A stretch of DNA of 64,000 nucleotides, taken from the NCBI GenBank assembly GCA_024234855.1, contig JACKNN010000006.1, positions 54,708-118,707 of the forward strand, read 5' to 3'. This DNA comes from Pseudomonadales bacterium (GTDB lineage Bacteria > Pseudomonadota > Gammaproteobacteria > Pseudomonadales > Halieaceae). Under the pieces are notes generated by a model that was not told where the DNA came from, did not search any database, and saw nothing but the letters and a program-made list of their open reading frames with translations. Positions 4,823 through 39,417 of this stretch are shown here, piece by piece (positions within the stretch are counted from its first letter, which is position 1; the number at the start of each line of letters is the position of its first letter). Position numbers and translations under genes: made by a program.

Positions 4823-5347
4823 TCATTCCACGTCCCCGGGGACGGTGTCATCCTGTATGAGCCTCTGCCCGGTTTTAACCAGGTCGCCGCGCGGGCATCG
4901 GGCGATCAATGTACCAAGATCTGTCCCGTCCGGCAGCACCCAATTTAGCCCGGCCACGTCCGCCAACGGGTATAGCACGAAATTCCGTTGCGCCAGCGCC
5001 GGGTGGGGGATGGTCAGCCGGGGGGTGGCGAGTTGGCGGTCACCGTAGAGCAGGATGTCCAGGTCCAGGCTGCGCGCGCCCCAGTGAACTGTGCGAACCC
5101 GCCCCTGGGCCAGTTCGATACCCTGCAGCGTCCCGAGCAGGTCCACAGGCTCTAGCGAGGTTTCCAGCCTGAGGACGGCATTGAGGTAGTCCGGTTGCAC
5201 ACCGGGACCGACGGCGGCGCTGCGGTAGGCGCTGGAGACCGCTGTTATCGCTGTGCCTGGCAGTTGCGCTATGGCGAGCAGCGCCTTGCGCAGCTGTCGC
5301 AGCGGGTCTTGCAGGTTGCTGCCCAGGCCAATAAAGGCCGTGGTCAT
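4823..5347 (-). CDS. folK: 2-amino-4-hydroxy-6-hydroxymethyldihydropteridine diphosphokinase
   Basis: 174 aa. AFIGLGSNL, WGARSLDLDILLYG and LTIPHP are HPPK signatures. The ATGA overlap with the pcnB stop reproduces the conserved pcnB-folK pair. Confidence 0.9.
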   Translation of the reverse strand: MTTAFIGLGSNLQDPLRQLRKALLAIAQLPGTAITAVSSAYRSAAVGPGVQPDYLNAVLRLETSLEPVDLLGTLQGIELAQGRVRTVHWGARSLDLDILLYGDRQLATPRLTIPHPALAQRNFVLYPLADVAGLNWVLPDGTDLGTLIARCPRGDLVKTGQRLIQDDTVPGDVE

Positions 5348-6639
5348 GCCCTGTTGCTGGAGCGCCGGCGAGATCGGCGCCCGCCACCCCCCGGGCCTTT
5401 TTCCTGCGCGGCCTGCGCCAACCGCTGTTCCATGGGGAGTTGCTGGAATTCAGTCCACCAGCTGCCCAGGTCCCCGGTGTCCTCCCCGGCCTGCTCCCGC
5501 AGCAGCAGGAAGTCATAGGCTGCGCGAAAGCGGCGGTGGTCAACCAGCTCGGCGGCCTTGCGGCCGCGGCGGTTTTCCAGTCGCAGCTGGAATTCCCAGA
5601 TTTCCCGCATGGGCTGGCTGAAGCGCTTGGGAATGGATATGTTGCGGGCCGCCTCTGAGATGGCTTCCTGGGCGGCGCTGTGCATGGCGGCCGGGGGCGG
5701 GTCGCCGCGCTCCTGCAATCGCAGTGCCTCGCGCTGCACCACCGGCCACAGCAGGGCGGCGAGGATGAAGGCCGGCGTGACCGGCTTGTCCTGTGCGATG
5801 CGCTGGTCGGTGCTCGCCATGGCGGCCCTTACCAGGGCATGCGCGACGGTGTGGCGGAGCATTTCCGCATAGCTGTCCGGAAACAGGTACAGCATCAGTT
5901 TGTGCCTGATCAGCATGTCAAACGTGGCGGCCGCATAACCGGACAGAAACAGCTTGAGGAATTCGTCGAACAGGCGGGCGGCGGGAATCTCCGCCAGCAG
6001 GTGTGCGCAGCCGGGAATGGCGCGAGCCGTGTGGGTGTCGATTTTGAATTCCAATTTGGCGGCAAAGCGCAGCACTCGCAGCATGCGCACCGGGTCCTCG
6101 GTGAATCGCACCGCCGGCTCGCCGATAATACAGATGCTGCGGCGTTCGAGGTCCTTGAGCCCGTGCACATGATCGAACACCTCGAAAGTGCCGGAATCGT
6201 AATACAGCGCATTGACCGTCAGGTCGCGCCGCACTGCATCCTCCTCCAGGGTGCCGTAAACATTGTCACGCAAGAGCAGGCCACTGGCTGACTGGCGGGA
6301 GTGGTTGCCACCCGATTCCGAACTGGGTTCAAGGTCGTTGTCGTGATGTCCGCGGAAGGTGGTGACCTCGATGATCTCCCGTCCGAAGCGCACGTGTACG
6401 ATACGAAAGCGCCGGCCGATGATGCGGGAGTTGCGGAACAATGCATGCACGGTTTCCGGTGTTGCATCGGTGGCGATATCAAAGTCTTTCGGGTGCCCGC
6501 CGAGCAGCAGGTCGCGAACGGCGCCGCCCACCAGGTAGGCCTGGTGGCCACTGCCGCGCAGGCGTGCCATGACCTTGAGCGCGCCGTCGCTGATGTTTTT
6601 GCGGGATATATTGTGTTGATCCCTGGGAATGATATTCAA
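5344..6639 (-). CDS. pcnB: Poly(A) polymerase I
   Basis: 431 aa. LVGGAVRDLLLG...KDFDIAT is the nucleotidyltransferase motif, followed by RFRIVHV and a basic Arg-rich C-terminus. It lies upstream of folK, as in E. coli and Pseudomonas. Confidence 0.92.
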   Translation of the reverse strand: MNIIPRDQHNISRKNISDGALKVMARLRGSGHQAYLVGGAVRDLLLGGHPKDFDIATDATPETVHALFRNSRIIGRRFRIVHVRFGREIIEVTTFRGHHDNDLEPSSESGGNHSRQSASGLLLRDNVYGTLEEDAVRRDLTVNALYYDSGTFEVFDHVHGLKDLERRSICIIGEPAVRFTEDPVRMLRVLRFAAKLEFKIDTHTARAIPGCAHLLAEIPAARLFDEFLKLFLSGYAAATFDMLIRHKLMLYLFPDSYAEMLRHTVAHALVRAAMASTDQRIAQDKPVTPAFILAALLWPVVQREALRLQERGDPPPAAMHSAAQEAISEAARNISIPKRFSQPMREIWEFQLRLENRRGRKAAELVDHRRFRAAYDFLLLREQAGEDTGDLGSWWTEFQQLPMEQRLAQAAQEKGPGGGGRRSRRRSSNRA

Positions 6640-6724
6640 ACGCTATTGAGCCCGTGTCTGTGAGGCGCGCAGTCTACCACAATTCGGATATTGGATTAGG
6701 GGAGGGGTATTGCGTTGGGGTGGG

Positions 6725-7015
6725 GTGAAAGAAGGGGAAAACAGTGTTTTCCCCATCCAGGTCTCACTTCGAGAATTATTGTTATTTCTTGAGTGCTGTT
6801 ATTTTTATGGGCCATATAAAAATACAGGTTAACAAAATGCCCAAGTCGTTATCGCTTCCTGTTACCTGTTCCGGGTAGTCCCGGTAGCCGGTAAGCGCCG
6901 GCTCAAACCTACCTGCTCACCACGAAATTGAGGGGAAGCTTGCTTCCCCATCCAGGTCCATAGCCGAGCGTGTTATTTTTATTACGGTATTTGTTATTTT
7001 TATTCTTATTACCCG
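6725..7015 (-). ncRNA. crcZ: CrcZ-like CbrB/sigma54-dependent A-rich (Hfq/Crc-sponge type) sRNA
   Basis: Non-coding gap between cbrB and pcnB, which is the crcZ position in Pseudomonas. Read on the minus strand it has four AAN/ARN-repeat clusters: AAUAAGAAUAAAAAUAACAAAUA and AAUAAAAAUAAC (6972-7011), AUAAAAAUAACA (about 6796-6808) and AAGAAAUAACAAUAAU (about 6772-6790). It has two GC hairpins. The distal one (6734-6754) is followed by UUCUUUC, giving an intrinsic terminator. A sigma54 promoter lies just upstream. The 5' end is inferred, not observed. Confidence 0.65.
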
Positions 7016-7025
7016 AGCTTAGTAA

Positions 7026-7041
7026 TGCACGCCACGTGCCA
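7026..7041 (-). promoter_or_regulatory. Sigma54 (-24/-12) promoter of the CrcZ-like sRNA
   Basis: The minus strand reads TGGCACGTGGCGTGCA, against the consensus TGGCACG-N4-TTGCW. GG and GC are at the canonical spacing. The orientation points toward the A-rich region. Confidence 0.7.
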
Positions 7042-7116
7042 GTAATTAAAATAACTATAATATTCATATGGTTATGGCTTTTAGACTCGTATCGCCCCCC
7101 GCCAGAATTCATGGCT

Positions 7117-7165
7117 TGTTACCTAACTACACCGCTTTGTGTAACGTGGACCGGTGCGGGTAACG
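7117..7165 (-). promoter_or_regulatory. Candidate enhancer (UAS) for CbrB: GTTAC/GTAAC half-sites
   Basis: The minus strand reads CGTTAC-N13-CGTTAC-N18-GTAACA, 75-125 bp upstream of the -24 element. An A/T-rich tract (7042-7080) lies between them and could be bent or IHF-bound. As far as I recall, Pseudomonas CbrB sites are TGTTAC...GTAACA palindromes. The spacing here differs, so this call is tentative. Confidence 0.4.
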
Positions 7166-7166
7166 T

Positions 7167-8603
7167 TCATTTTCCGCGTATGGCGGATTTCCTGGCCTGG
7201 CTGGCGACGCCGGGTCTGTTGCGTGGAATGCCCAATCGCTGGCGCCGCTCCCACAGGCATTTTCGACTGACGCCGAGTTTCTGCGCCAGTTCAGTCTCGC
7301 TCATGGAATCCTGGTGCTCCATGACGAAGCGCTGGAAGTAGTCTTCCAGGGACAGGTCTTCCAGCGGGTCGGAGTTGCCCGCGCTGGGCTTTCTCACGGT
7401 CGGGGCTATGCCCTGTTGGCCGCGTATACGGTTTATGTTGACCAGTTCCAGGTCGATGCCGAGCGCCTCGTTATCGATCTCATCGCTGTCAGACAGGATT
7501 ACCGCGCGCTCTATGGCGTGTTCCAACTCGCGCACATTGCCTGGCCACTGGTAGGTGGTGATGGCCTGGATGGCCCGCGGCGACAGGCGCATCGGCTTTT
7601 TGCCCAGGCGCTCGACCTGTCCCTGCAGCATATTTTCGGCCAGGTGAAGGATGTCCTTGCCACGCTCCCGCAGAGGGGGGAGCGAAAGTTGCAGCACGTT
7701 GATCCGGTAAAACAGGTCCTGGCGGAACTCGCCCTCCGCCGCCAGGCTCTGCAGGTTGCGGTGGGTGGCGCAGATCAGGCGCACGTTGACCTTGCGCGAG
7801 TGGACCGAACCGATTCGCCGGATTTCCCCCTCCTGGATGAAGCGCAGCAGGCGGGCCTGCGCCTCCATTGGCAACTCGCCGATTTCGTCCAGGAACAGGG
7901 TGCCACCATCGGCGGCTTCGATGAGGCCCATGCGGCTGGCGTTGGCGCCGGTGAAAGCCCCTTTTTCATAACCGAACAATTCCGACTCGATCAGGGTATC
8001 CGGAATGGCGGCACAGTTCACCGAGATCAGTATCTTGTCGCCCCGCGTGCTGTGGCGGTGGACGCTGCGCGCGACAATCTCCTTGCCGGTACCTGTCTCC
8101 CCCAGCACCAGCACGGTGGAATCAGTCGGCGACACTTTGCGGATATGCTCAAACAGGGTCAGCATGGCGGGGCAATTGCCGGTGATGCCATTGACTCCGC
8201 TTGGTTTGGGCTGACTGGTGGCGTCCGACTTGTCCTGGGCCCGGCGGGGCGCCGGGTGGTCCGCGATGATGCGCTGCACCGCCGCGATCATGTCGCCGTG
8301 ATCAAACGGCTTGGCGATATAATCCACAGCCCCCATGCGCATGGAGTCCACCGCCGAGCGCAGGCTGGCATAGCTGGTCATGATCAGTACCGGTACCTCC
8401 CCGGCCTTGCGGATCAGGTCCGTGCCGGGCGCACCGGGCAGGCGCAGGTCGCTTATGATCAGGTCGAATTCCTCGAGGTCATGGTTTGTTTCGGCTTCCT
8501 GCACGGAACCGGCCTCATTGACCTGGTAGCCATTGCGCTCCAGTAGCCGCCGGAGCGCTGTCCTGATCACCGTTTCGTCTTCAACCACCAGAATTTTGTG
8601 CAT
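7167..8603 (-). CDS. cbrB: NtrC-family sigma54-dependent response regulator CbrB
   Basis: 478 aa. Receiver domain (ILVVEDE...DLIISDLRLPG), AAA+ sigma54-activator motifs GETGTGKE and ESELFGYEKGAFTGA, and a C-terminal HTH. It lies downstream of cbrA and upstream of the sRNA and pcnB. Confidence 0.88.
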   Translation of the reverse strand: MHKILVVEDETVIRTALRRLLERNGYQVNEAGSVQEAETNHDLEEFDLIISDLRLPGAPGTDLIRKAGEVPVLIMTSYASLRSAVDSMRMGAVDYIAKPFDHGDMIAAVQRIIADHPAPRRAQDKSDATSQPKPSGVNGITGNCPAMLTLFEHIRKVSPTDSTVLVLGETGTGKEIVARSVHRHSTRGDKILISVNCAAIPDTLIESELFGYEKGAFTGANASRMGLIEAADGGTLFLDEIGELPMEAQARLLRFIQEGEIRRIGSVHSRKVNVRLICATHRNLQSLAAEGEFRQDLFYRINVLQLSLPPLRERGKDILHLAENMLQGQVERLGKKPMRLSPRAIQAITTYQWPGNVRELEHAIERAVILSDSDEIDNEALGIDLELVNINRIRGQQGIAPTVRKPSAGNSDPLEDLSLEDYFQRFVMEHQDSMSETELAQKLGVSRKCLWERRQRLGIPRNRPGVASQARKSAIRGK

Positions 8604-8719: not shown

Positions 8720-11704
8720 CTATGCCTCGAAGGCGTCACCGTAACTGGCCCGCGGCAAGTGCAGGGTAATGCGCGTGCCCGGGTTGGGGCCGTTGTGCAG
8801 CGGGCTGGTCAGGCTCACGCTGCCCCCCATATCCTCCATAATGCTGAACACCAGCGCCAGGCCAAGACCGGTGCCGGCGCCCGGGTCCTTGGTCGTGAAA
8901 AAAGGCTCGAACACCTGGGCCTGCAGTTCCGGCGGGATGCCGCAGCCGCTGTCCTCGATATCGATCACCACCTCTTCGCCCTTGCAGCGCGCCAGTATGT
9001 CCACCTGGCCGAAGTCGTCACAGGCGTCCCGGGCATTGCCCAGCAGGTTGACAAAAACCTGCAGCAGTCGCTGGGTGTCCGCCAGTACCACCAGTTCCCG
9101 GTCGCAGCGATTATCAAAATGTACAGGCCTTGCCTCCCGGTCCAGCGCCAGCAGGTGAATCGTCTCGTCAACACAGTCTGCGAGATTGGACGGCGCCAGT
9201 GTCAGTTCGCCGGCGTTGGAGCCGGCGTGGGAGAAGTTCACCAGTGATTCCACGATCCGGCTGATGCGGTCGGTTTGTTTGAGGATGTCCAGCGCGGTAT
9301 AGCGGACCTCGTCAGGGTCGGTTTCAAACTCCAGGTTCTGGGCCAGGCAGGCGATGCCCGTAACCGGGTTGCCGATCTCGTGGGCGACCCCCGCCGCCAG
9401 GCGCCCGATGGAAGCCAGCCGCTCGTTGTGCAGTAACTCCTTTTCCAGCAGTTCGAAGCTGGTAATGTCTTCCACCAGTATCACGGTACCCGCTGGCTTG
9501 TCCCCCGAGCCTGTGTCGGCATCGGCTTTGTGGAGACTGATCCAGGTGGACTGGTCGCCGTTCCCGGCGACCTCGGTTTTCAGTTGGGTATCGCTGTCGC
9601 CCTGCAGGAAGCTGCCCATGATCTGGCGCCAGGGCTGCGGCAGGGAGTCCAGCCGGGAGCCGAGTATGTCTCGCGCGACGATGCCGGTGATCTGTTCCAT
9701 GCTGCGGTTCCACAACAGGATCTCGCCATCATCACCGATGGAGCACACGCCAATCGGCAGGTTGTTCAGGGTTTCGCGGTAGTGACGCCGCAGGTTGTCC
9801 AGGTCTGCGGTCAGGCCGGTAAAGCGGGTTTGTGCCCGGTCGAGTTTGCGTTCGATCAGGTGAAAATCCTCGGTACTGTCCTGCATCCCGGGTTGGAACG
9901 GAATGCAGCGCTCCATAATGCTGTAGGCCACCGCCGGACCCAGCAGGCCGGAAAGATTTGCCTCCAGGCGAGCCCGCAGCCGGCGCAGCGCATAGGGGCG
10001 GCTCTCCCCGGGAGAGAATTGCAGCTCCGCGAGAGCCCGGTTTACCTCGGCGCGGGCGGTCTTTTCCCCCAGGGCTGAGCTCAACTGGCGGCTGAATTCC
10101 TCGGCGCTCTGTAGCGAGAGCACCCTGCGGATGGGTCTGGACAGGTCGTCCATGGAGCAGATCTCGGCCGCCACTTTTTCCTCGGCACTGGCCGTTGTCA
10201 GCAGGGAGACCAGGACGAACAGGCCCGCATTCAGCACGAGTGAGAAGAGCATGCCATCCGCCCAGCGGTTGGCGCCGGCGGCGAGCATATTTTCCGGCAG
10301 CAGGCTCCACATCGGTGCCGGATAGTTGCCCGCCAGCGGCAGCAGCATCAAAAAGAACCAGACCGTCAGGCCGATCACGAGCCCGGCGATAAGACCCTTG
10401 CGATTGGCGGCCGGCCAATAGAGTGTGGCGATGATACCTGGCAGGAATTGCAGGGTGCCGGAGAAGGCGACCAGTCCCAGCTGGGTGAGGCTCTGGGAGC
10501 CGCTCAGGGTGATAAAAAAGGTATAGCCGGCCAGGATCAGTATTCCGATAAGCGTGCGACGCAGCCACTTGAGTTGGGTATAGATGTTCAATTCCCGATC
10601 AATCTGCAGTAACCGGGTAGGGAGAATCAGGTGGTTCAGGCACATGTTGGCCAGGGCCAGGGTGGTGACAATGATGGCCGCACTGGCGGCGGACAACCCC
10701 GCCACGAAGGCGGCCGCGCTGATGGCCGTGGAGCGGGCTGTCAATCCCAGGGCCAGGCCACTGTAGTCTATGGGTAAGGCGTGCCCCAATTTTATACCCG
10801 CCCAGGTGACCGGCAGGATTGGCAGGCTCAGCAGCAACAGGTACAACGGCAATCCCCAGGTGGCGGTGCGCAGGTCGCGGCTATCCGTATTCTCCGCGAA
10901 CACCATGTGGAATATATGGGGCATGCAAACGGCGCCTGCAAAAAATACCACCAGCAGTGTGCGCGCGGTATTGTCTCGCAGGGAGTGTTCCATGGCATTG
11001 CTCACCTGCGGGTTGTCCGCCAGCCAGCGCTCGACCTCGCCAAAACTGCCAAACACGCCGTAGACGGCGGCAAACAGCAGGATGAACATGGCGGCGAGCT
11101 TGACCAGCGATTCAAAGGCGATCGCTGTTACCAGCCCCGTATTGCGCTCCTGCGCAGACAGGTGGCGAGTGCCGAACAAAATGGAAAATACCGTGATAAT
11201 GATGCAAAACAACAGGGCCAGGCCGTTCTGCTGGCTCTCCCTGGAGAACAGATTATCGGCGTCCCCGGCCATGATCTGGATACTGTCCGCAACGGCCTGG
11301 ATCTGCAGGGCAAGCAGTGGCAGCAGAGTGAGGCACATGGCGACGGTGATGGCTGCCCCCACCCATGGACTGCGGAAGCGAAAGGTGAGGACATCGGCCA
11401 GCGAGGCCAACTGGTATACCCGGCACAGCCGCAACAGCGGTAACAGCAGCAGCGCCGCGAATACGAACATAAACACCACGCCGCCGTAATAGAGCAGGAA
11501 GTTGTACCCGTAGCGGTAGGCGAGGTCCATGACGCCATTGGTGGCCATGGCTCCGGCAAAGACCCCCAGCGACAGCACGTAGGTGGCCGGGTGCTTGCTG
11601 ATCCGCTCGGGGATGATACCCCGGTCGGCCAGGTAGGCCACGGCAAACAGGCCGCTGAGGTAGGCGACGATGAACAGCAGTAGCTGGGCGAGACTAAAGC
11701 TCAT
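8720..11704 (-). CDS. cbrA: Sensor histidine kinase CbrA (SSS/SLC5 transporter-like domain fused to PAS-HisKA-HATPase)
   Basis: About 500 aa of N-terminal multi-TM solute:sodium-symporter-like sequence, then a PAS region, the H-box AHEIGNPV, the N-box NLLGNARDA and the G-boxes DSGCGI / GTGLGL. The start was set at ATG 11704 (MSFSLAQ), giving 994 aa. Confidence 0.88.
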   Translation of the reverse strand: MSFSLAQLLLFIVAYLSGLFAVAYLADRGIIPERISKHPATYVLSLGVFAGAMATNGVMDLAYRYGYNFLLYYGGVVFMFVFAALLLLPLLRLCRVYQLASLADVLTFRFRSPWVGAAITVAMCLTLLPLLALQIQAVADSIQIMAGDADNLFSRESQQNGLALLFCIIITVFSILFGTRHLSAQERNTGLVTAIAFESLVKLAAMFILLFAAVYGVFGSFGEVERWLADNPQVSNAMEHSLRDNTARTLLVVFFAGAVCMPHIFHMVFAENTDSRDLRTATWGLPLYLLLLSLPILPVTWAGIKLGHALPIDYSGLALGLTARSTAISAAAFVAGLSAASAAIIVTTLALANMCLNHLILPTRLLQIDRELNIYTQLKWLRRTLIGILILAGYTFFITLSGSQSLTQLGLVAFSGTLQFLPGIIATLYWPAANRKGLIAGLVIGLTVWFFLMLLPLAGNYPAPMWSLLPENMLAAGANRWADGMLFSLVLNAGLFVLVSLLTTASAEEKVAAEICSMDDLSRPIRRVLSLQSAEEFSRQLSSALGEKTARAEVNRALAELQFSPGESRPYALRRLRARLEANLSGLLGPAVAYSIMERCIPFQPGMQDSTEDFHLIERKLDRAQTRFTGLTADLDNLRRHYRETLNNLPIGVCSIGDDGEILLWNRSMEQITGIVARDILGSRLDSLPQPWRQIMGSFLQGDSDTQLKTEVAGNGDQSTWISLHKADADTGSGDKPAGTVILVEDITSFELLEKELLHNERLASIGRLAAGVAHEIGNPVTGIACLAQNLEFETDPDEVRYTALDILKQTDRISRIVESLVNFSHAGSNAGELTLAPSNLADCVDETIHLLALDREARPVHFDNRCDRELVVLADTQRLLQVFVNLLGNARDACDDFGQVDILARCKGEEVVIDIEDSGCGIPPELQAQVFEPFFTTKDPGAGTGLGLALVFSIMEDMGGSVSLTSPLHNGPNPGTRITLHLPRASYGDAFEA

Positions 11705-11870
11705 CCGGGTATCTCGTCCGCTGGTTCCAGTAAGCGGCCACGACAATCAGCAACCACAACTGGTAGGGCCGGTGCCAGACGATGCCCTGATTGAATATCC
11801 ACTCGCCCATCGCCGGGGAGAAAACCAGGAATACGCCCACCGCCAGTAGTAGCGCTCGATTGATATACAT
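11694..11870 (-). CDS. cbrX: CbrX-like small hydrophobic protein, translationally coupled to cbrA
   Basis: Hand translation of the minus strand from ATG 11870 gives MYINRALLLAVGVFLVFSPAMGEWIFNQGIVWHRPYQLWLLIVVAAYWNQRTRYPDEL (58 aa, two hydrophobic segments). Its TAG (11694-11696) lies 8 nt inside cbrA (GGATGAGCTTTAG). It is below the 60-aa cut-off of the ORF track. Confidence 0.6.
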   Translation of the reverse strand: MYINRALLLAVGVFLVFSPAMGEWIFNQGIVWHRPYQLWLLIVVAAYWNQRTRYPDEL

Positions 11871-29636: not shown

Positions 29637-32600
29637 TCAGTGAAAATCACGCGAGCTCACCTGCAGGGACTGCAGTTCATGGGTGTAGTCGTACAGACCG
29701 CCGGCGATGATGTGGATGACGTTGTCCCTGGTCTCCAGGGTGCCGTTCACCAGCAGTAGCTGCGCGGACATCAATGGCTGGCGAAACTGCTGCTGGGTGC
29801 GCTGCCACACCACGATATTGCTGTTGCCGGTCTCGTCTTCCAGGGTGAGAAACAGCACGCCGGAGGCGCTGCCGGGGCGCTGGCGGCAGGTGACCAGTCC
29901 GGCGATGCGCACAAAGCGGTTGTTGCCCATCTGTGCCAGGTCGGCGTGGCGTTTGCAGCGGTCGAAAGGGGGGCGGTCGCGCAGCAGGCTCATGGGGTGC
30001 GCCCGCAGGGTGAGGCCGGTGGCGCGGTAATCGGCCAGCACCTCCTCCGCCACGCCCGGCGCCGGCAACTGTATGCCGTCATCGAAATAGCTGGCGGGCT
30101 CGGCCTGTTCCGACTGCAGCAGGGGGCGGGCCTGCTCCAGCGCCATGATCTGCCACTGGGACTGGTGGCGGTGGCCGCTGAGCGAGGCCAGCGCATCGGC
30201 ATCCGCCAGCGCTTCCATGTCGCGCTTGTCCAACTGCGCCCGCTGGCGCAGGTTGCTGACCTGGCGAAAGGGCGCCTGCTGGCGGGCTTCCACCACGCGC
30301 TGCGCGCCCTCCCTGCTGAGGCCTTTCACCAGCCGCAGCCCCAGGCGGATGGGCGGCTGCGCCGGCAGGCTTGATCGACCCTCCAGAAGTTGGTGATCCC
30401 AGTCGCTGTGATTGACATCGATGGGCAGCACGGTCACGTCGTGGCGCCGGGCGTCCTGCAGTAGCTGGGACGGGCTGTAAAACCCCATGGGCTGGCTGTT
30501 GAGCAGGCCGGCAAAAAAGGCCGCCGGGTGGTGGCGCTTGAGCCAGGCCGAGACATAGGCCAGCAGGGCGAAGCTGGCGGAGTGCGACTCCGGGAAACCG
30601 TAGCCGCCAAAGCCCTTGATCTGTTCGAACAGGCGGCGGGCGAAATCCTCGTCGTAACCGCGCGCTATCATGCCCCTGGTGAGCTTCTGCTCAAAGCTCA
30701 GCAGCTTGCTGTTCCTGCCCCAGTTGGTGATGGCCCGGCGCAGCTGGTCCGCCTCGCCACCGCTGAAGCCCGCCGCGACCATGGCCAGGCGAATCACCTG
30801 TTCCTGGAAGATGGGCACCCCCAGGGTGCGCTCCAATACCGATTTGATGGCCTCGCTGGGATAGGCGATGTCTTCCAGCCCCTGCTTGCGTCGCAGGTAG
30901 GGGTGCACCATGTCGCCCTGAATGGGGCCCGGCCGCACGATGGCGATCTCGATCACCAGGTCGTAAAAGCACCCGGGTTTGAGCCGCGGCAGCATGGACA
31001 TCTGGGCTCGGGACTCGATCTGGAATACACCCACCGTATCGGCCGCCTGCAACATGCGATAGGTGGCCGGGTCCTCTTTCGGGATATCGCTGACGGTCCT
31101 GATGGCGGGGCAGTAGCGGTGCACCAGCTGCAGGCTTTTCCTGATTGCCGACAACATGCCCAGGGCGAGGATGTCCACCTTGAGCAGGCCCAGCGTCTCG
31201 ATATCTTCCTTGTCCCACTGGATAACCGTGCGGTCAATCATGCTGGCGTTCTCCACCGGCACCAGGGTGGATATAGGGCTGCGGGTGATGACGAAGCCCC
31301 CCACATGCTGGGACAGGTGGCGGGGAAAGCCGAGTATCTGTTGCACCAGGGTGTAGAACAGCTGCGCCAGCCGGCTGTGTCCCGCCACGCCCTGTTCCTC
31401 GAAACGCTTGGCTAAATCGGCGGTGCGATCCCACCAGGCCATGGACCTGGCCAGATCGTCCACGAATACCGGGTCCAGCCCCAGTGCCTTGCCCACGTCG
31501 CGCACCGCGCTGCGGGAGCGGTAGGTGATGATGGTGGCGGCCAGGGCGGCGCGCTTGCGGGAGTACTTTTCATAGATGTACTGGATCACTTCCTCCCGGC
31601 GCTCGTGCTCGAAGTCGACGTCGATATCCGGCGGCTCGTCCCGCTCCCGGGAGATAAAACGCTCGAACAGCAGGGAGATCTGCTCGGGGGATACCTCGGT
31701 GATGAACAGGCAGTAGCACACCACCGAGTTGGCCGCCGAGCCGCGGCCCTGGCACAGGATGGCGCGCTCGCGGGCGAAGCGCACGATGTCGTACACGGTG
31801 AGAAAGTAGTACTCGTAATCCAGCTCCTCTATCAATAGCAGTTCGTGGTCTATGCGCTGCTGTATCTCCGCGGGAACGCCTTTTGGCCAGCGCGCCGCGC
31901 TGCCCTGCACCACCAGCTCTCGCAGGTAGTGCTTGGCGGAATAGCCTTCCGGCACGACCTCCTCGGGGTATTCGTAGCGCAGCTCGTCCAGGCTGAATTT
32001 GCAGAGCCGGGAGATGCGCAGCGTTTCGGCCAGCAGGGCAGGGGGGTAGAGCTGCTGTAATTTGTCCAGCGCTCGCAAATGCTGCTGGCTGTTGGCCAGG
32101 CGCTTGCGTCCCAGCTGCGTGATGCTGGTATTGTGGCGCAGCGCCGTAAACACGTCGTGCAGGGGTTTGCGGTGCGCGCTATGCATCTGCACATTGCCGC
32201 AGGCCGCCATGGGAATGCGCAGTTCGCTCGCCAACTGGTACAGCGCCTGATAGCGCCGGTGCTCGTCATTGCCCAGCAGGTGAGTGACGCCGAGCCAGAC
32301 CCGGTCTTTGCACAGCCTGCCCAGTTGCAGGCCCCAGGCCAGGTTGCTGTCATCGTTGCCCTCGGGCAGCCAGATCAGCAGGCAGCGCTTGAGGTGGAAA
32401 ATGACATCGCGCAGGGTGGCCTGGTACTGCCCCTTGGGACTGCGTCGCCGGGCCATGCTGATCAGCCCGGAAAGCTCACTGTAAGCCGCCCGGGAGGGTG
32501 CCAGTGCCACCAGTTTTATGCCCTCGGCCAGTTGGAATTCACTGCCCACGATTAACTGGATGCCGTGTTCCTTCGCAGCCATGTGGGCCTTGACGATACC

Positions 32601-32738
32601 CGCCAGTGAGCACTCGTCGGTAATGGCCAGCGCGGCATAGCCCAGCGCGGCCGCGCGCTCCACCAACTCGTGGGGGTGGGAGGCGCTGCGCAGGAAGCTG
32701 AAACAGCTGAGGCAATGGAGTTCAGCGTAGGTTGACAT
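29637..32738 (-). CDS. dnaE2: Error-prone DNA polymerase DnaE2 (ImuC)
   Basis: 1033 aa. N-terminal PHP domain YAELHCLSCFSFLRSASHP and Pol IIIalpha core motifs (PDIDVDFEH, GLLKVDILALG). It has no tau/beta C-terminal extension. A LexA box lies directly upstream. Confidence 0.93.
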   Translation of the reverse strand: MSTYAELHCLSCFSFLRSASHPHELVERAAALGYAALAITDECSLAGIVKAHMAAKEHGIQLIVGSEFQLAEGIKLVALAPSRAAYSELSGLISMARRRSPKGQYQATLRDVIFHLKRCLLIWLPEGNDDSNLAWGLQLGRLCKDRVWLGVTHLLGNDEHRRYQALYQLASELRIPMAACGNVQMHSAHRKPLHDVFTALRHNTSITQLGRKRLANSQQHLRALDKLQQLYPPALLAETLRISRLCKFSLDELRYEYPEEVVPEGYSAKHYLRELVVQGSAARWPKGVPAEIQQRIDHELLLIEELDYEYYFLTVYDIVRFARERAILCQGRGSAANSVVCYCLFITEVSPEQISLLFERFISRERDEPPDIDVDFEHERREEVIQYIYEKYSRKRAALAATIITYRSRSAVRDVGKALGLDPVFVDDLARSMAWWDRTADLAKRFEEQGVAGHSRLAQLFYTLVQQILGFPRHLSQHVGGFVITRSPISTLVPVENASMIDRTVIQWDKEDIETLGLLKVDILALGMLSAIRKSLQLVHRYCPAIRTVSDIPKEDPATYRMLQAADTVGVFQIESRAQMSMLPRLKPGCFYDLVIEIAIVRPGPIQGDMVHPYLRRKQGLEDIAYPSEAIKSVLERTLGVPIFQEQVIRLAMVAAGFSGGEADQLRRAITNWGRNSKLLSFEQKLTRGMIARGYDEDFARRLFEQIKGFGGYGFPESHSASFALLAYVSAWLKRHHPAAFFAGLLNSQPMGFYSPSQLLQDARRHDVTVLPIDVNHSDWDHQLLEGRSSLPAQPPIRLGLRLVKGLSREGAQRVVEARQQAPFRQVSNLRQRAQLDKRDMEALADADALASLSGHRHQSQWQIMALEQARPLLQSEQAEPASYFDDGIQLPAPGVAEEVLADYRATGLTLRAHPMSLLRDRPPFDRCKRHADLAQMGNNRFVRIAGLVTCRQRPGSASGVLFLTLEDETGNSNIVVWQRTQQQFRQPLMSAQLLLVNGTLETRDNVIHIIAGGLYDYTHELQSLQVSSRDFH

Positions 32739-32797: not shown

Positions 32798-33434
32798 TCA
32801 GTCATCCACGGGGCTGATGACACCCAGAGCGCCGCGGTTCAACACGTGGGTGTAAATCTCCGTGGTGGTTACATCCTCATGCCCCAGCAGTTTTTGTATG
32901 GTGCGAATGTCATAGCCATTCTGGAGCAAGCGGGTGGCGAAACTATGCCGAAAGGTGTGTGTTTTAACAGGTTTTCGGATGTCGGTTTTCGCAACGGCTG
33001 CCCTGATATGTTTGCGCAGTGCTGGCAGTAACGTAATGCGATCCTTATCGCCTTTGCCCTGACGTACGGTAATCGTGTTGAGTGAAAAATCTACATCCTT
33101 CACGCGCAGTGAAAGACATTCCTGCAATCTCAGGCCGCTGCCATAAAGCAATTCGACCATCAACCTGGGGGTGCCGGACATATGGCTGAGAATCGCTCGG
33201 GTTTCCTCGTGGCTCAGTACCGTGGGTAGCCTGCGGGTGGGTTTGGCATAGCTGAAAGATAGTGTCTCGGGTTCACGCCGGTAAAACCTGGTGTACAAAT
33301 ACATCAGGGCGTTTAATCCAGTGCAGGTAGGTGCGCTCCGTGGAAAACGCATAACCGCGAGCCCTCATGTCTGCCCGCAACTGGTCCATTAGCCGGGTAG
33401 ATCCGGCGGGAATAGGGACGGGTATATCATCCAT
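32798..33434 (-). pseudogene. intI: Integron integrase intI, inactivated by deletions and a frameshift
   Basis: C-terminal part: LLYGSGLRLQECLSLRVKDVDF...RQGKGDKDR, HTFRHSFAT, LLGHEDVTTTEIYTHVLNRGALGVISPVDD (IntI-type tail). An N-terminal fragment in another frame from ATG 33434 (STRLMDQLRADMRARGYAFSTERTYLHWIKR) stops at 33285. About 45 aa are missing after HWIKR. About 70 aa, including the IntI-specific insertion, are missing between LPALRKHI and RAAVAK. Confidence 0.85.
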
Positions 33435-33775
33435 GAAATACACGCTTCGAAAAATGCCTGATGCCAGATCATCACAGGGGCTTTGTGCGCGTCAACATGG
33501 TGGCCGTTTCTCATTGGAAATAATCAACTGTATCTCGACAGGGCGACTGTAACCCGTTGAAAGATTGAGCTATGCTCCAGCAGCGGCCGTGAACAATGGG
33601 CCCGAGATCCACTCGGGGCACACAGCCAGGGTACTCTGATTCAAAAAAAAGCAAATTAAGTAAAAATGGTCAGGTGCTTGATGAATGGAAGATGTTTTCA
33701 ATTCGGGATTACTTCTATATGTGAACAAGGGGCCGTTTCTAGTTCTGATTTAGTTCAACGATTAAGCTGTTATGA
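33435..33775 (+). promoter_or_regulatory. attI / cassette-promoter region (candidate crossover GTTATGA at 33769-33775)
   Basis: A/T-rich non-coding stretch between the intI 5' end and the first cassette ORF. The last GTTRRRY match before cassette 1 is at 33769. No Pc promoter could be assigned confidently. Confidence 0.4.
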
Positions 33776-33803
33776 GGCCTGCGTTCGGGTATCGCGCTGA
33801 CTG

Positions 33804-33992
33804 ATGGGTACTCTACTCCCAATTATTCTGTCCCTGGCAATGGCCCTTGTTGCCGGGATAGAACTTAAGCGTCAGCGGCTCGTGCTGCGACCTTTTGTCA
33901 CAAGAGCCTCTAGCCCTGTTTGGTATTGGACAGAGGTGTATATCTCTATTGGTCTATGCTTGGTTTTCTTTCGGCAGGGTTTGAGCGCGTAA
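33804..33992 (+). CDS. Cassette 1: small two-TM membrane protein, unknown function
   Basis: 62-aa ORF with two hydrophobic segments. It is the only sizeable ORF in the 333-bp cassette between attI and attC1. No clear SD. Confidence 0.45.
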   Translation: MGTLLPIILSLAMALVAGIELKRQRLVLRPFVTRASSPVWYWTEVYISIGLCLVFFRQGLSA

Positions 33993-34016
33993 TGGGTATT
34001 CTACATGCACCGGTCT

Positions 34017-34108
34017 CATAACAAGTTGCTCAAATCCGTTCCGGCCCTGCGGGCCTCCACCGGACAGCCCAACCTGCGGTTCGTCTGCCGTTTAGCAAGG
34101 CGTTAGGT
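34017..34108 (+). repeat. attC site 1
   Basis: CATAAC-AAG-TTGC ... GCAA-GGC-GTTAGGT. R''/L'' pair with L'/R', and the core GTTAGGT is at 34102-34108. Confidence 0.8.
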
Positions 34109-34115
34109 GGACTAA

Positions 34116-34604
34116 TTGATTGAGCACGCCGACACATTTTATTTACTCGCTGAAGTTGCTATCGCAGTTGCTGGTTTCGCTGGTGTTGCAACCGTCTTTG
34201 GTGGACGCGAAAAGCGATTTCGCGATGCAGAGTTACTGCGACTAAGAGGGCTTTTTCAGCTTTCAGCACTTGTCCTGGCGGGTTGTTTTGGCATTGCTTC
34301 ATGTCAAGCGGCGGGATTATCTAACGAACAAACCATGTCACTCGTTTCAATGATTCTACTCGTTGCTTACGGGTTGGTTGTAATGGATGTGCCCGTAAAA
34401 GCTATACGGCTCTACCGAAAGAAAGAAACAACAGTCTCGCTTGGTGCTCTGACTGCTGCTTGGTCTTTGTATGTATTCGGTTTGCCGCTACTAACAATTA
34501 ATGCGTTCTTGCTTCGGCACGAATGGCCTCTAATCTTACTATTCTCATTGTCTATACTTACGGCGATTTGGCAGTTTTATCGGTTAGTAACGAAGGTTAA
34601 CTAG
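34116..34604 (+). CDS. Cassette 2: four-TM membrane protein, unknown function (paralogue of the cassette at 38753-39265)
   Basis: 162 aa from a TTG start. Hydrophobic helices. Shares AGFAGVATVFGGR / LLRLRGLF / WQFYRLV blocks with the later cassette protein. Confidence 0.6.
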   Translation: MIEHADTFYLLAEVAIAVAGFAGVATVFGGREKRFRDAELLRLRGLFQLSALVLAGCFGIASCQAAGLSNEQTMSLVSMILLVAYGLVVMDVPVKAIRLYRKKETTVSLGALTAAWSLYVFGLPLLTINAFLLRHEWPLILLFSLSILTAIWQFYRLVTKVN

Positions 34605-34612
34605 TGGATCCA

Positions 34613-34686
34613 CCTAACAAGTCAAGGCTGCAAGGGCGCTTCGCGCCGGGACGGCCTTACGGTCGCCCCAGCTTGAAGCGTTAAGT
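34613..34686 (+). repeat. attC site 2
   Basis: CCTAAC-AAG-TCAAGGCTG ... CAGCTTGA-AGC-GTTAAGT. The unpaired G in CAAGGCTG is typical of attC extrahelical bases. Confidence 0.85.
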
Positions 34687-35029
34687 GTCCGTGATCGCTC
34701 AACTAGAGAATACCGCTCCTCTTTCACAGGTCTGGTTTGTGCATGACTATATTCAGCTGAAGTTTCAAGATCGTACAGTTACAGTACTAAACACTCCAAA
34801 GTTACGGCTCTCTTCCGGTATGGTACTGAACAGGAGCGATGATGGCTTTTGCGACAATTTGGTATCTCAAATTGGGCAACCCATTGATGAAGCGCGGCTC
34901 ATCGAGGAAGAGCTCTTTTTCATAAGGTTTGCATCCGGCGTGGAGTTAATGGTTCCGCTAAACGATGAAGCTGTAAATGGCCCAGAAGCCTTAGAGTTGC
35001 CAGGAGCCTACGTTGTATTCAACACTTAA
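34685..35029 (+). CDS. Cassette 3: soluble 114-aa protein, unknown function
   Basis: The ORF fills the cassette. Its stop TAA lies inside the attC3 R'' box (CTTAAC). No recognisable motif. The start (GTG 34685 or 34691) is uncertain. Confidence 0.55.
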   Translation: MSVIAQLENTAPLSQVWFVHDYIQLKFQDRTVTVLNTPKLRLSSGMVLNRSDDGFCDNLVSQIGQPIDEARLIEEELFFIRFASGVELMVPLNDEAVNGPEALELPGAYVVFNT

Positions 35030-35101
35030 CAAGGGCAGGCAGTGCGCTCCCTCCGGTCGCCGGACGCGCGTACCGCGCGCCCGCTGCTGCAAGCGTTATG
35101 T
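35025..35101 (+). repeat. attC site 3
   Basis: CTTAAC-AAG-GGCAGGCAG ... CTGCTGC-AAGC-GTTATGT, with a GC-rich variable centre. Confidence 0.8.
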
Positions 35102-35132
35102 GCGCTGGACAGGCACTGTCCGAGGAGTATGA

Positions 35133-35403
35133 TTTGGGTATGGACACAACACTGAAGAATCTGCCTCTTGGTATGAATTGCAGAGGCTCGGTCTAGGTCA
35201 TGAATTCCTAGATATAGTTCTAGAGATGCTTAGCTCAATCGAACAAAGTCCATTGACTTACCCAATCGTGCACCGAAACGTTCAGAGGAGTGCTACCCAG
35301 ATTCCCATTCGCCATTTTCTATTTCTTGCAAGACGCAGAAATATCGGTCATTTCTGTCATGCATGGCAGTAGGGATCCATCCCGATGGCAGCGGCGCACA
35401 TAA
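35133..35403 (+). pseudogene. Cassette 4: ParE/RelE-family toxin remnant (frameshifted, N-terminally truncated)
   Basis: The frame of the track ORF gives SWYELQRLGLGHEFLDIVLEMLSSIEQSPLTYPIVHRNV. A +1 shift near 35290 gives RFPFAIFYFLQDAEISVISVMHGSRDPSRWQRR, the typical ParE/RelE C-terminus ending in the attC4 R'' box. No antitoxin ORF lies upstream. Confidence 0.7.
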
Positions 35404-35458
35404 CAAGCACAAGCAACCGGGACTGGCGTTCCGGCAGCCCTTGTTGTGGGCGTTATGT
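35397..35458 (+). repeat. attC site 4
   Basis: CACATAAC-AAG-CACAAGC ... CCTTGTTGTGG-GC-GTTATGT. A short (62 bp) attC. Confidence 0.8.
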
Positions 35459-35482
35459 GTCTCAGGGCATCAGGTCCAGGAT

Positions 35483-35950
35483 ATGAAAATGTACAACTAC
35501 GAACTTGAGCATATTTGTTCCGTCAAAGTTACTCTCCAGAACCCTCCTGAGGTCATCGGGCCTACGCCGGATGGGCTTCGTCTGAACATATATATCACAG
35601 GAGGAGAGGTGCGAGGTCCCCGACTAAATGGGAAAGTTCTTCCCGTGGGTGCAGATTGGCTGACCATTCGCAGTGATGGAGTGGGCGTCTTAGATATTAG
35701 AGCTACTATAGAGACTGACGATGGCGCACTGATCTATCTCTCTTACCAAGGCCTCGCCGATGCCGGTGAGGATGGGTACGAAAAATTCATCGAAGGGAAC
35801 CCTCCGTCTCCTGTTCCCCTTCGTGGAGCGCCACGCTTTCAGACAGCACATCCCGATTATCTCTGGCTAAATAGAATACAGTGCCACAATGTAGGTGAAG
35901 CTGACTTGGAAAGCTGGGTAGTGGGCTATGACCTCTATACGGTCAAATAG
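35483..35950 (+). CDS. Cassette 5: DUF3237 (UPF0311) family protein
   Basis: LNIYITGGEVRGPRLNGKVLPVGADWLTIRSDGVGVLDIRATIETDDGALIYLSYQG matches my recollection of the DUF3237 beta-barrel family. The start is ATG 35483. Confidence 0.7.
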   Translation: MKMYNYELEHICSVKVTLQNPPEVIGPTPDGLRLNIYITGGEVRGPRLNGKVLPVGADWLTIRSDGVGVLDIRATIETDDGALIYLSYQGLADAGEDGYEKFIEGNPPSPVPLRGAPRFQTAHPDYLWLNRIQCHNVGEADLESWVVGYDLYTVK

Positions 35951-35996
35951 GGTCGGCTAACGGGGCTTGGGCGGCATAGGGCAAGCTACGGCACTT

Positions 35997-36052
35997 CACA
36001 TAACAAGGCACGCAACCTGACGGCTACGCCGCCGGTTCGTTTGGCGTTAGGA
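35997..36052 (+). repeat. attC site 5
   Basis: CACATAAC-AAG-GCACGCAACC ... GGTTCGTTTG-GC-GTTAGGA (56 bp). Confidence 0.75.
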
Positions 36053-36117
36053 GTTCCTACCGCCCCAAAATCCACCTCTTGCTAAAAATGCCTTAGTGGT
36101 ATATTTTTTATACCATT

Positions 36118-36378
36118 ATGAAGTTTCAGTACGACCAAAGAAAAAGTGCCTCCAATCGCAAAAAGCATGGGATTGATTTTGAGCAGGCTCAATCTCTTTG
36201 GGATGACCCGAACTTGGTGGAATTGGCAGCGCGGTCTGACGATGAGGCAAGATCAATCGTGATTGCTCGCTTCAATCGCCAATACTGGTCAGCCGTATTT
36301 ACATATCGCGATGACGAGATTCGATTAATTTCGGTCAGGCGATCTCGGAAAGCTGAGGTAGAGCTTTATGAAAGCTAA
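36118..36378 (+). CDS. brnT: Cassette 6: BrnT-family (DUF497) ribonuclease toxin
   Basis: MKFQYDQRKSASNRKKHGIDFEQAQSLWDDPN is the BrnT N-terminal signature. 86 aa. It overlaps the downstream antitoxin gene by 11 nt. Confidence 0.85.
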   Translation: MKFQYDQRKSASNRKKHGIDFEQAQSLWDDPNLVELAARSDDEARSIVIARFNRQYWSAVFTYRDDEIRLISVRRSRKAEVELYES

Positions 36379-36601
36379 AGATTTCGACAAAAAATTCGAC
36401 CAGGGTAAGGAAGACATAATTGATGACCTGGATATTTCCAGTCTCAAACGGCCGAATCAAACACCTCGACGAGTTAACGTGGATTTTCCCGAATGGATGA
36501 TCATCTCTCTTGACAAAGAGGCGGCAAGACTGGGAGTTACTCGACAATCCATTATCAAAGTCTGGCTGGCGGAACGCCTTGAACACACCCCTAACAAGTA
36601 A
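36368..36601 (+). CDS. brnA: Cassette 6: BrnA (CopG/RHH-type) antitoxin
   Basis: RVNVDFPEWMIISLDKEAARLGVTRQSIIKVWLAERL is the ribbon-helix-helix C-terminus typical of BrnA. The stop lies inside the attC6 R'' region. Confidence 0.8.
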   Translation: MKAKDFDKKFDQGKEDIIDDLDISSLKRPNQTPRRVNVDFPEWMIISLDKEAARLGVTRQSIIKVWLAERLEHTPNK

Positions 36602-36663
36602 AGGCTGCAAGGCGCCTTCGGCGCGGGACGTCGTAACCGGCGCCCCAGCTTGAAGCGTTAGCA
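36590..36663 (+). repeat. attC site 6
   Basis: CCTAAC-AAG-TAAAGGCTG ... CAGCTTGA-AGC-GTTAGCA. Same class as attC2. Confidence 0.85.
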
Positions 36664-36850
36664 CACTCAGGAGATGAAGAGATGTCTGCTCCTTACCTTT
36701 TCAGGGATGGCGCAACCCAATGAACAACCAGATTACGAACAAGCGGAGAAGTACATAGTCGAGTGTGCTACCGATTGGGCAGAGTCGGTTGTGACCGGGG
36801 ATGTAGGACGGAGAAAGGTCTAATTTACGTTATCACTTCAAGCTAAATGA

Positions 36851-36911
36851 CACATAAGTAGTACAAGCTGTGGGGCGGCCGTACCGGCCGACCCGGTTGT
36901 AGGCGTTACAC
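36851..36911 (+). repeat. attC site 7 (diverged)
   Basis: CACATAAG-TA-GTACAAGC ... GGTTGTAG-GC-GTTACAC. The R'' box has G in place of the final C. Confidence 0.55.
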
Positions 36912-36933
36912 GTCTTTTCAGTTGGAGTGTTGT

Positions 36934-37251
36934 ATGGAATCGATCAATACAAGAATTCAAACAGCAGAATCGCTTTGGCTACTGGGTGCAGAGGCGGAGC
37001 GTTCAGAAAATTATCCGCTTGCTTACCGGCACTACACTGAAGCGCATGACCTGATAATGGACTGTGCAAGGCTTCATCAGTTGTCGCATGTAAAATTGCG
37101 AAGGGTAAATTACAAACTTGGCAACTATGGCGAATTTTTAACAGACTGGCTACTTCACTGTTTTGCGCCATTGGGAGTCTTTGAACTGGTATCCCGCCTT
37201 TCCAAAACAGATGCCTGGGGTTCAATCATCTGTAAGCGTAATGCAGCATAG
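36934..37251 (+). CDS. Cassette 8: soluble 105-aa protein, unknown function
   Basis: The ORF fills the cassette. ATG 36934 (MESINTRIQ) is preferred over the TTG at 36922. Looks helical (WLLGAEAERSENYPLAYRHYTEAHDL) with no recognisable motif. Confidence 0.55.
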   Translation: MESINTRIQTAESLWLLGAEAERSENYPLAYRHYTEAHDLIMDCARLHQLSHVKLRRVNYKLGNYGEFLTDWLLHCFAPLGVFELVSRLSKTDAWGSIICKRNAA

Positions 37252-37289
37252 TTATGCCATTCTTGCTGGGAAATCGCCGTTCAGATCCG

Positions 37290-37375
37290 CATAACAAGTG
37301 GCTCAAGATTGTGGCTTCGCCACTGGACAGCCTCAACCGGCGTATGCTTCGCTTTGTATGCGCCACTTGTGTCTG
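37290..37375 (+). repeat. attC site 8 (degenerate R' core)
   Basis: CATAAC-AAG-TGGC ... GCCA-CTT-GTGTCTG. The 5' half resembles attC1, but the core is GTGTCTG rather than GTTRRRY. Confidence 0.55.
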
Positions 37376-37426
37376 CCCCTTGCCTCACAGCGAGTTGGAG
37401 TGGTCAAGCATTTTGTGACAACCCAG

Positions 37427-38601: not shown

Positions 38602-38705
38602 TCTCCAGTTTGGGGTATTATCCCTTAACTGGGTTGGTCACATCTATTGAACCACTTCAAGTGACAGAAATAGTGCCACATTTATGAAAACTGAATTAGT
38701 GACTA

Positions 38706-38754
38706 CATAGAAGCGTCAGGCGAATGCTACGCGCCGCAGCTTGAAGTGTTAACT
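38706..38754 (+). repeat. attC remnant (3' half of class attC2/attC6), core GTTAACT
   Basis: ...GCGCCGCAGCTTGAAGTGTTAACT matches the 3' arms of attC2 and attC6. The 5' arm (CATAGAAGC) is degenerate. Confidence 0.45.
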
Positions 38755-39413: not shown

Positions 39414-39417
39414 CTGT

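Follow-up and report, generated by a model that had tools for sequence, protein, structure and literature searches.

The closest described counterpart of the element analysed here is CrcZ of Pseudomonas aeruginosa and P. putida (Rfam family RF01675), a small RNA (sRNA) whose gene lies directly between cbrB and pcnB. The gene has a sigma-54 promoter and CbrB sites with the consensus TGTTAC-N12-14-GTAACA-N15-19-GTAACA (PMC8871633), and the RNA carries several A-rich ARN motifs. In its 3' module, a stem enclosing a loop rich in A is followed by an A-rich single-stranded motif and a GGGGAnn hairpin. Reviews treat CbrAB together with CrcZ as unique to the Pseudomonadaceae (PMC8871633, PMC6296734), and full-text literature searches returned no description of a CrcZ-like RNA outside this family. 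Here we analyse the gap between cbrB and pcnB in a 64-kb stretch of contig JACKNN010000006.1, which derives from a marine member of the Halieaceae; this whole stretch is called the window in the following. We think it likely that the gap encodes a diverged, miniaturised positional orthologue of Pseudomonas CrcZ, located outside the Pseudomonadaceae.

Sponges of this type can be present in more than one copy. CrcY and CrcX (P. putida, P. syringae) and CrcZ and CrcY of Azotobacter vinelandii are redundant, CbrB-dependent and A-rich, and they originated by duplication. A common logic is also seen in CsrB, RsmY and RsmZ, which are driven by a two-component system and titrate a global translational repressor by means of repeated short motifs in loops or single strands. 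Their motifs are GGA, recognised by CsrA/RsmA, and they require sigma-70 and GacA, whereas the Halieaceae RNA carries ARN repeats, to which Hfq binds with its distal face.

The predicted RNA gene between cbrB and pcnB

The gap comprises 527 nt on the minus strand (6640-7166), from the start of pcnB (6639) to the stop codon of cbrB (7169-7167). An earlier reading of the bare sequence, referred to below as the original prediction, had described it as an A+T-rich non-coding gap in G+C-rich DNA, embedded in the Pseudomonas-like gene order dksA-gluQ-cbrX-cbrA-cbrB-gap-pcnB-folK-panB-panC-acs. Both descriptions are accurate: the G+C content is 0.42-0.475 in the gap and 0.585-0.64 in its flanks, and the order that we checked (acs, panC, panB, a kinase-like gene, folK, pcnB, the gap, cbrB, cbrA, gluQ, dksA) is as claimed. 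The features recognised in the gap are as follows.

7117..7165, minus strand: upstream activating sequence, with CGTTAC (7165-7160), N13, CGTTAC (7146-7141), N18 and GTAACA (7122-7117)
7042..7116, minus strand: A+T-rich spacer from enhancer to promoter, putatively a bending or IHF region
7026..7041, minus strand: predicted sigma-54 (-24/-12) promoter TGGCACGTGGCGTGCA with correct GG-N10-GC spacing
6923..7016, minus strand: unit 1, with P1 stem, ARN runs 1 and 2, box and hairpin 1 (91.8 bits with model R1, see below)
7013-7010 pairing with 6989-6986, minus strand: P1 stem of unit 1, closing a 20-nt loop that holds ARN run 1
7010-6990, minus strand: ARN run 1, 7 triplets, the longest run in the window and the only one of 7 triplets there
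6983-6972, minus strand: ARN run 2, 4 triplets, predicted to be single-stranded
6959-6950, minus strand: box GGACCUGGAU of unit 1, just before hairpin 1
6949-6932, minus strand: hairpin 1, GGGGAAG-CAAG-CUUCCCC, with the tail UCAAUUUC
6822..6922, minus strand: inter-unit spacer, G+C-rich, variable in sequence and able to form hairpins
6844-6839, minus strand: TTGGGC, conserved in the spacer and followed 17 nt on by TTTTAT (6821-6816)
6725..6821, minus strand: unit 2, with ARN runs 3 and 4, box and hairpin 2 (39.8 bits with R1)
6806-6795, minus strand: ARN run 3 in unit 2, at least 4 triplets
6789-6775, minus strand: ARN run 4 in unit 2, at least 4 triplets
6765-6755, minus strand: box GAGACCUGGAU of unit 2
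6754-6734, minus strand: hairpin 2, GGGGAAAAC-ACU-GUUUUCCCC, with the tail UUCUUUC (6733-6727), from a terminator scan
6671..6679, minus strand: extended -10 element TGgTAGACT, between hairpin 2 and pcnB

A sigma-54 promoter preceded by CbrB sites, as in CrcZ, is present in the form of predicted sites. The pattern GTTAC-N28-42-GTAACA occurs once in the window with 0.17 occurrences expected, and the outer half-sites, 37 nt apart, are compatible with the published Pseudomonas consensus. According to the original prediction, GTTAC/GTAAC half-sites lie upstream and overlap the 3' end of cbrB. The half-sites exist, but the overlap does not, as the first one starts 2 nt past the stop codon. The sigma-54 promoter that had been placed at 7041-7026 is there with the proper spacing, and from the usual distance to the -12 element a transcript start near 7015 is predicted.

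This geometry is fixed in relatives. In 89 of 89 complete cbrB-pcnB gaps from related loci, the sigma-54 site stands about 84 nt before hairpin 1. Of 107 distinct related upstream regions, 83 have the GTAAC nearest the promoter beginning 80-81 nt ahead of TGGCA; there were 57 instances of GTTAC-N37-GTAAC and 50 of GTAAC-N16-18-GTAAC. Over the last 75 nt ahead of the promoter, the mean A+T content is 0.66 (107 related loci), with a strict IHF consensus in only 14.

Two further observations concern sites of these kinds. The Rfam family P36 ("Pseudomonas sRNA P36") matches the enhancer upstream of the RNA of locus L003 (L003:5446-5505, plus strand; 24.6 bits at a threshold of 36). With its consensus UGUUACC-N13-GUAACA-N15-GGUAAC, P36 would seem to represent a region bound by CbrB and not an RNA. 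At 42153-42168 (minus strand) there is a perfect sigma-54 consensus, TGGCACTCCAGTTGCT, within the plus-strand open reading frame (ORF) 41942-42274; it is probably a chance match, because GTTAC/GTAACA sites were not found nearby.

The RNA itself is made up of two tandem units of about 95 nt, at 7016-6923 and 6821-6725 on the minus strand. In each, a first ARN run occupies a hairpin loop and a second is single-stranded; the invariant GACCUGGAUGGGG box and a GGGGAA hairpin follow. The identical 15-mer GACCTGGATGGGGAA stands directly before both hairpins, and since two like hairpins follow the same 15-mer, we regard the RNA as a tandem duplication of one unit. Neither hairpin 1 nor the two-unit repeat had been noticed before; the terminator ending in UUCUUUC that had been proposed is hairpin 2 and its tail. 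The four A-rich repeat clusters of the Hfq/Crc-binding type in the original prediction correspond to four ARN runs of 4-7 triplets. Six of the eight matches to AANAANAANAA in the window fall within the gap, all of them on the minus strand, and 0.45 were expected for the whole window. Several exposed A-rich motifs, a mark of CrcZ, are therefore present as these four runs, the first of them in a predicted loop, though fewer than in Pseudomonas CrcZ. In relatives, a run of at least 4 triplets occurs in 89 of 89 distinct units, and 79 of the 89 have a second.

Conservation of the unit and its relation to CrcZ

A metagenome scan was carried out with the signature AATAAYA-N8-24-CCTGGRTGGGGR-N4-16-TCCCC, which uses no protein information. 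It yielded 120 loci, 117 of which adjoin a homologue of cbrB (47-92% identity), of pcnB or of both. The three without cbrB or pcnB (L137, L166, L205) are taken as chance matches because none of them is matched by the covariance model R1. This model was built from 35 first units; unit 1 of the window is one of its seed sequences and unit 2 is not. Applied to the 64-kb window with filters off, R1 gave two matches only, unit 1 with 91.8 bits and unit 2 with 39.8 bits (E ~1e-4). In the related loci there were 182 matches, and those that were checked lie in or adjoin the cbrB-pcnB gap. R1 finds relatives that Rfam misses.

The P1 stem is supported by compensatory changes. In a plain MAFFT alignment it has 32 double-change cells. 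Shuffled alignments gave 12.4, none of the 500 reaching the observed count, and slid controls gave no more than 18. At pair 8-32, 20 sequences have UA, 8 have CG and 4 have UG; at pair 9-31, 16 have AU, 4 have GC and 3 have UA. RNAalifold recovered the stem de novo. A model-fitted alignment of 119 distinct sequences gave 272 double-change cells versus 114, a figure to be read with the leaning of this alignment towards the model. The terminal hairpin is conserved and shows a small number of compensatory changes. The predicted fold of the full 292-nt RNA has z = -4.55. Together, the fixed enhancer-promoter geometry, the covariation and the near-exclusive linkage to cbrB and pcnB support an sRNA gene that would be driven by CbrB and sigma-54.

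The number of units varies with distance from the window. The two-unit arrangement downstream of cbrB was found in L001, L002 and L081-L089. With CbrB at least 75% identical to that of the window, 30 of 38 complete gaps hold two units, and below 60% identity all 33 of 33 hold one; complete gaps span 296-1099 nt. By source name, single-unit forms belong to Zhongshania (Spongiibacteraceae), Halieaceae and Luminiphilus. Outside the window, the unit was also seen in Spongiibacteraceae (Zhongshania), Cellvibrionales relatives and Luminiphilus, and its hosts are abundant coastal bacterioplankton. A different form is seen in a metagenome-assembled genome (MAG) of the Cellvibrionaceae, where a long RNA with at least six AACAACAA/AAUAAGAA repeats (L006:5690-6100, plus strand) is unmatched by R1.

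The relation to CrcZ was assessed through the Rfam consensus. The best permissive CrcZ scores in relatives were 22.1 bits for L003 and about 20 bits for L002. In the L002 alignment, CrcZ consensus positions ~279-365 form a stem with a loop rich in A, then an A-rich motif in single-stranded form, and finally a GGGGAGC-UUCG-GCUCCCC hairpin. Since the layout of the unit is that of this 3' module, we propose homology of the unit and not membership of the Rfam family as modelled. The differences are considerable: the CrcZ model has 398 positions, whereas the Halieaceae RNA has about 290 nt with four ARN stretches, or would be split into two of ~95 nt each; the CrcZ consensus has no counterpart of the invariant GACCUGGAUGGGG box; and the host belongs to the Halieaceae (Cellvibrionales) and not to the Pseudomonadaceae. 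The unit of ~95 nt would be a natural minimal CrcZ, handy for studying how ARN RNAs load Hfq.

Several observations weigh against an orthologue of CrcZ. At gathering scores, Rfam found no match in the window or in 10 related loci, as the original prediction had suspected when it warned that an Rfam model may miss the RNA. In a permissive scan CrcZ (RF01675) was the best family, with 21.2 bits (E=0.0017, at 7009-6926) at a gathering score of 95. The U tails are interrupted: the 10 nt that follow hairpin 1 contain 5.0 T on average, and those that follow hairpin 2 contain 4.0. The GACCUGGAUGGGG box has no place in a sponge model. Neither crc nor hfq was matched in the window or across 1.58 Mb of related loci, the Crc query being identical to PDB 4JG3. 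Finally, the sigma-54 motif by itself has 30 matches in the window at <=2 mismatches, and 43 are expected; the site has weight because it is conserved in relatives, a lone match being within chance.

This last point is also what can be said for a gap with no RNA gene, an A+T-rich spacer with a cbrB terminator and pcnB promoter elements in which the motifs occur by chance. The ARN enrichment, the fixed geometry, the covariation, the conservation down to 47% CbrB identity and the linkage of 117 of 120 signature matches to cbrB and/or pcnB make this explanation scarcely credible.

For the CrcZ orthologue that we favour, we infer transcription, dependence on CbrB and RpoN, Hfq binding and a physiological role along the following lines. 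CbrA, an SLC5-STAC-PAS histidine kinase made together with CbrX, would phosphorylate CbrB, which would bind the GTTAC/GTAACA sites ~80 bp upstream and activate the sigma-54 promoter at 7041-7026. The transcript from near 7015 would contain the ~95-nt unit twice, each with one ARN run in a loop closed by the covarying stem, a second ARN run in single-stranded form, and then the box and the GGGGAA hairpin. As ARN repeats are the distal-face motif of Hfq, the RNA would titrate Hfq (and Crc, if the organism has one) off the A-rich ribosome-binding regions of catabolic mRNAs. Catabolite repression would thereby be lifted once the preferred carbon is exhausted.

The box is the part of the unit that this mechanism does not use. 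The sequence GGACCUGGAU(GGGG) is invariant across loci with CbrB identities of 47-92% and is not found in the Rfam CrcZ consensus. Its GA pairs with UC past the stem, and the remaining box is invariant and unpaired. A pairing of the box with the RNA 5' end (CGGGU with ACCUG), seen in the minimum-energy fold of the window sequence, was rejected because the 5' strand varies and the box does not. The box was also considered as a CsrA/RsmA site and discarded, the second GGA being GGG in the single-unit clade. A role in initiating translation of a small ORF was likewise dropped, since unit 1 alone has AUG and other units read GUGAGA, CGAGA or AACGGA.

The RNA could alternatively act mainly by base pairing, with the single-stranded box GGACCUGGAU(GGGG) as the seed for target mRNAs and the ARN runs only recruiting Hfq. 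No part of the unit is as well conserved as the box, which is invariant in 32 units over the CbrB range just given, and within the RNA only its GA pairs; in Hfq-dependent sRNAs, conservation is usually highest in the seed. We nevertheless consider a mainly base-pairing RNA unlikely. The ARN density is typical of a sponge, the box is not part of the Pseudomonas CrcZ consensus, and there is no complementary site in the 64-kb window, which is far too little sequence to judge.

Transcript structure of the gap

In place of one RNA of ~290 nt, the gap may hold two tandem sRNA genes, to which we assign somewhat less than an even chance. Unit 1 (~94 nt) would then be sigma-54-driven and end at hairpin 1, and unit 2 (~95 nt) would be transcribed from TTGGGC-N17-TTTTAT. 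One copy would be under CbrB control and the other not; the function as an Hfq sponge would be the same, and only the transcript structure would differ. Hairpin 1 resembles a terminator no less than hairpin 2 does (mean dG -11.1 versus -12.1 kcal/mol, tail T 5.0 versus 4.0), and in single-unit relatives it is the equivalent hairpin that must terminate the RNA. Across 25 Halieaceae loci (alignment A4), TTGGGCA and TGTGTTTTTATA hardly vary and keep a constant spacing of 17-18 nt, while other spacer sequence drifts. In one relative, L101, both units have their own enhancer and sigma-54 promoter.

The candidate -10 element before unit 2, by contrast, lacks the A at position 2 and was not among the sites from a consensus promoter scan. 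In L115, L118 and L158, unit 2 directly adjoins hairpin 1 and leaves no space for a promoter; read-through or processing must occur there. The spacer can also form stable hairpins, and the z value given above holds for the whole 292-nt RNA. A second sigma-54 promoter before unit 2 was looked for: neither the window nor L001 and L002 have a match to GG-N10-GC there, and only L101 has one. The second copy in the window is thus in tandem and without a sigma-54 promoter, whereas the known Crc-sponge paralogues are unlinked and each have their own (PMC8871633). Unit 2 and the two copies in L101 reflect a tendency to duplication similar to that of CrcY and CrcX.

L101:2783-3296 (minus strand) consists of two complete tandem genes, each with enhancer and sigma-54 promoter. 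L115:6193-6388 (minus strand), like L118 and L158, has two abutting units and no spacer.

The conserved TTGGGC...TTTTAT pair may be a weak sigma-70-like promoter of unit 2, or its U-rich strand may mask ARN run 3, with which it can pair in the predicted fold. For the masking helix of U-rich strand and ARN run, together with a UGGGC/GCCCA helix, 77% of cells were paired and covariation was no better than in shuffles. A consensus structure of the spacer was not obtained, the alignment being too poor there. On a more speculative note, the conserved core of the system would be CbrB plus the ~95-nt unit RNA and not the CbrA sensor; the GACCUGGAUGGGG box would mediate a second interaction, with a protein partner or as a base-pairing seed, making the RNA more than an Hfq sponge; and the U-rich stretch would mask the first ARN run of unit 2, giving a self-inhibited sponge. 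We regard this combination as doubtful.

The extended -10 element TGgTAGACT downstream of hairpin 2 is likely to be pcnB's own promoter. TGTGnTAGAnT is kept at the equivalent position in L001, L002, L003, L081-L089, L091, L117 and L189. As a separate observation, TGnTAGA(C/A)T between the RNA and pcnB is kept across the Halieaceae and in more distant relatives.

This element bears on a reading of the gap as a regulated pcnB leader, in which the sigma-54 transcript passes both hairpins into pcnB and the hairpins serve as attenuators. The RNA shares its strand with pcnB, the U tails are weak, and hairpin 2 is only ~85 nt from the pcnB start. A leader is nevertheless very improbable in our view: the conserved TGnTAGAnT lies between hairpin 2 and pcnB in many relatives, the equivalent arrangement in Pseudomonas yields free-standing CrcZ (PMC8871633), and conservation holds for the unit itself, whereas its spacing from pcnB changes from locus to locus (gaps of 296-1099 nt).

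Cbr genes, Crc and further observations

The genes that flank the RNA were assigned by domain and structure matches.

11694..11870, minus strand: cbrX, ORF for a 58-aa membrane peptide that overlaps the start of cbrA
8720..11746, minus strand: cbrA, SLC5-STAC-PAS-histidine kinase; the ORF reaches 11746, the likely ATG is at 11704
7167..8603, minus strand: cbrB, NtrC-type sigma-54 activator with receiver, AAA+ and C-terminal DNA-binding region
5344..6639, minus strand: pcnB, poly(A) polymerase I (NCBIfam TIGR01942, 515.6 bits)

CbrX residues 1-58 match residues 1-58 of PDB 10ED chain X, Pseudomonas CbrX (E=8.6e-10), and CbrA residues 15-622 match chain A of the same entry, Pseudomonas CbrA SLC5-STAC (E=1.3e-173). 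According to its depositors, 10ED is the structure of the Pseudomonas CbrXA SLC5-STAC part (PMC13022988). CbrX of P. putida likewise has 58 aa and overlaps cbrA (PMC6591292). The C-terminal part of CbrA (residues 655-1000) has PAS, HisKA and HATPase_c domains in Pfam. Judged by their sequences, both cbrX and cbrA are genuinely orthologous to their Pseudomonas counterparts. CbrB has the Pfam domains Response_reg, Sigma54_activat and AAA_lid_14 and belongs to the NtrC family of NCBIfam, and its receiver keeps the phospho-acceptor Asp in the motif DLIISDLRLPG. All features of CbrXAB are therefore present, namely SLC5, STAC, PAS and kinase in CbrA, the overlapping cbrX, and a CbrB receiver of the phosphorylatable type. 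The downstream neighbour is pcnB, as in Pseudomonas; its start codon is apparently TTG.

The closest CbrB relatives among the matches listed, with 81-99% identity, come from Halieaceae MAGs (labels Haliea, Halioglobus and Halieaceae bacterium). The host belongs to the Halieaceae, order Cellvibrionales, and is not a pseudomonad. The original prediction had stated that the Cbr/Crc-type circuit would be extended in such a case. With the full cbrX-cbrA-cbrB-sRNA-pcnB module in the Halieaceae, the circuit reaches beyond the Pseudomonadaceae as far as sequence evidence goes, and this control of carbon preference is probably not limited to pseudomonads.

In clades with CbrB 47-58% identical to that of the window, cbrX-cbrA is missing from the locus (L134, L112, L177, L116, L121, L093 and related loci). 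In L134 (5395-6804) the gene order is pfp-ppa-x-sfsA-dksA-gluQ-cbrB-sRNA-pcnB. The phospho-acceptor Asp of CbrB is replaced in these clades, by Glu in 11 loci and by Gly or Thr, with a decayed receiver, in 11. A cbrA match on the contig was found in none of the 22 loci with replaced Asp as opposed to 60 of the 63 with Asp. The names in the Glu group are Luminiphilus and Halieaceae, and enhancer, promoter and RNA are all kept in the Asp-replaced loci. In NtrC, the corresponding Asp to Glu exchange, D54E, is constitutively active.

A Crc protein could not be assigned to the Halieaceae by tblastn, protein searches, a representative search or a cluster look-up, and no Halieaceae name was among the matches listed (120 of 4311). 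Crc-like proteins with QD or QN for QETK, the catalytic Glu being gone in the alignment, are widespread in marine gammaproteobacteria, with examples in Parendozoicomonas, Litorivicinus, Neptuniibacter, Marinobacterium, Reinekea and Hahellaceae. One set of these proteins (P0241-P0251 and P0420-P0535) is 40-55% identical to P. aeruginosa Crc, has QD, QN or QQ as compared with QETK in the nuclease, and is annotated as 'exodeoxyribonuclease III' in many marine genera. Crc may therefore be far more widespread than the Pseudomonas literature implies.

Elsewhere in the window, there is a low-GC island at 32800-40400 (0.48-0.52 compared with about 0.63). A phage-type integrase, which is truncated (32798-33352), and an IS3 transposase (37427-38305) are encoded there, along with proteins of the DUF3237 and DMT_6 types. 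The island is located between dnaE2 (29637-32738) and genes for an imuB-like IMS protein (43913-45478) and imuA (46783-47607). The imuA-imuB-dnaE2 mutagenesis cassette appears to have been split by inserted DNA.

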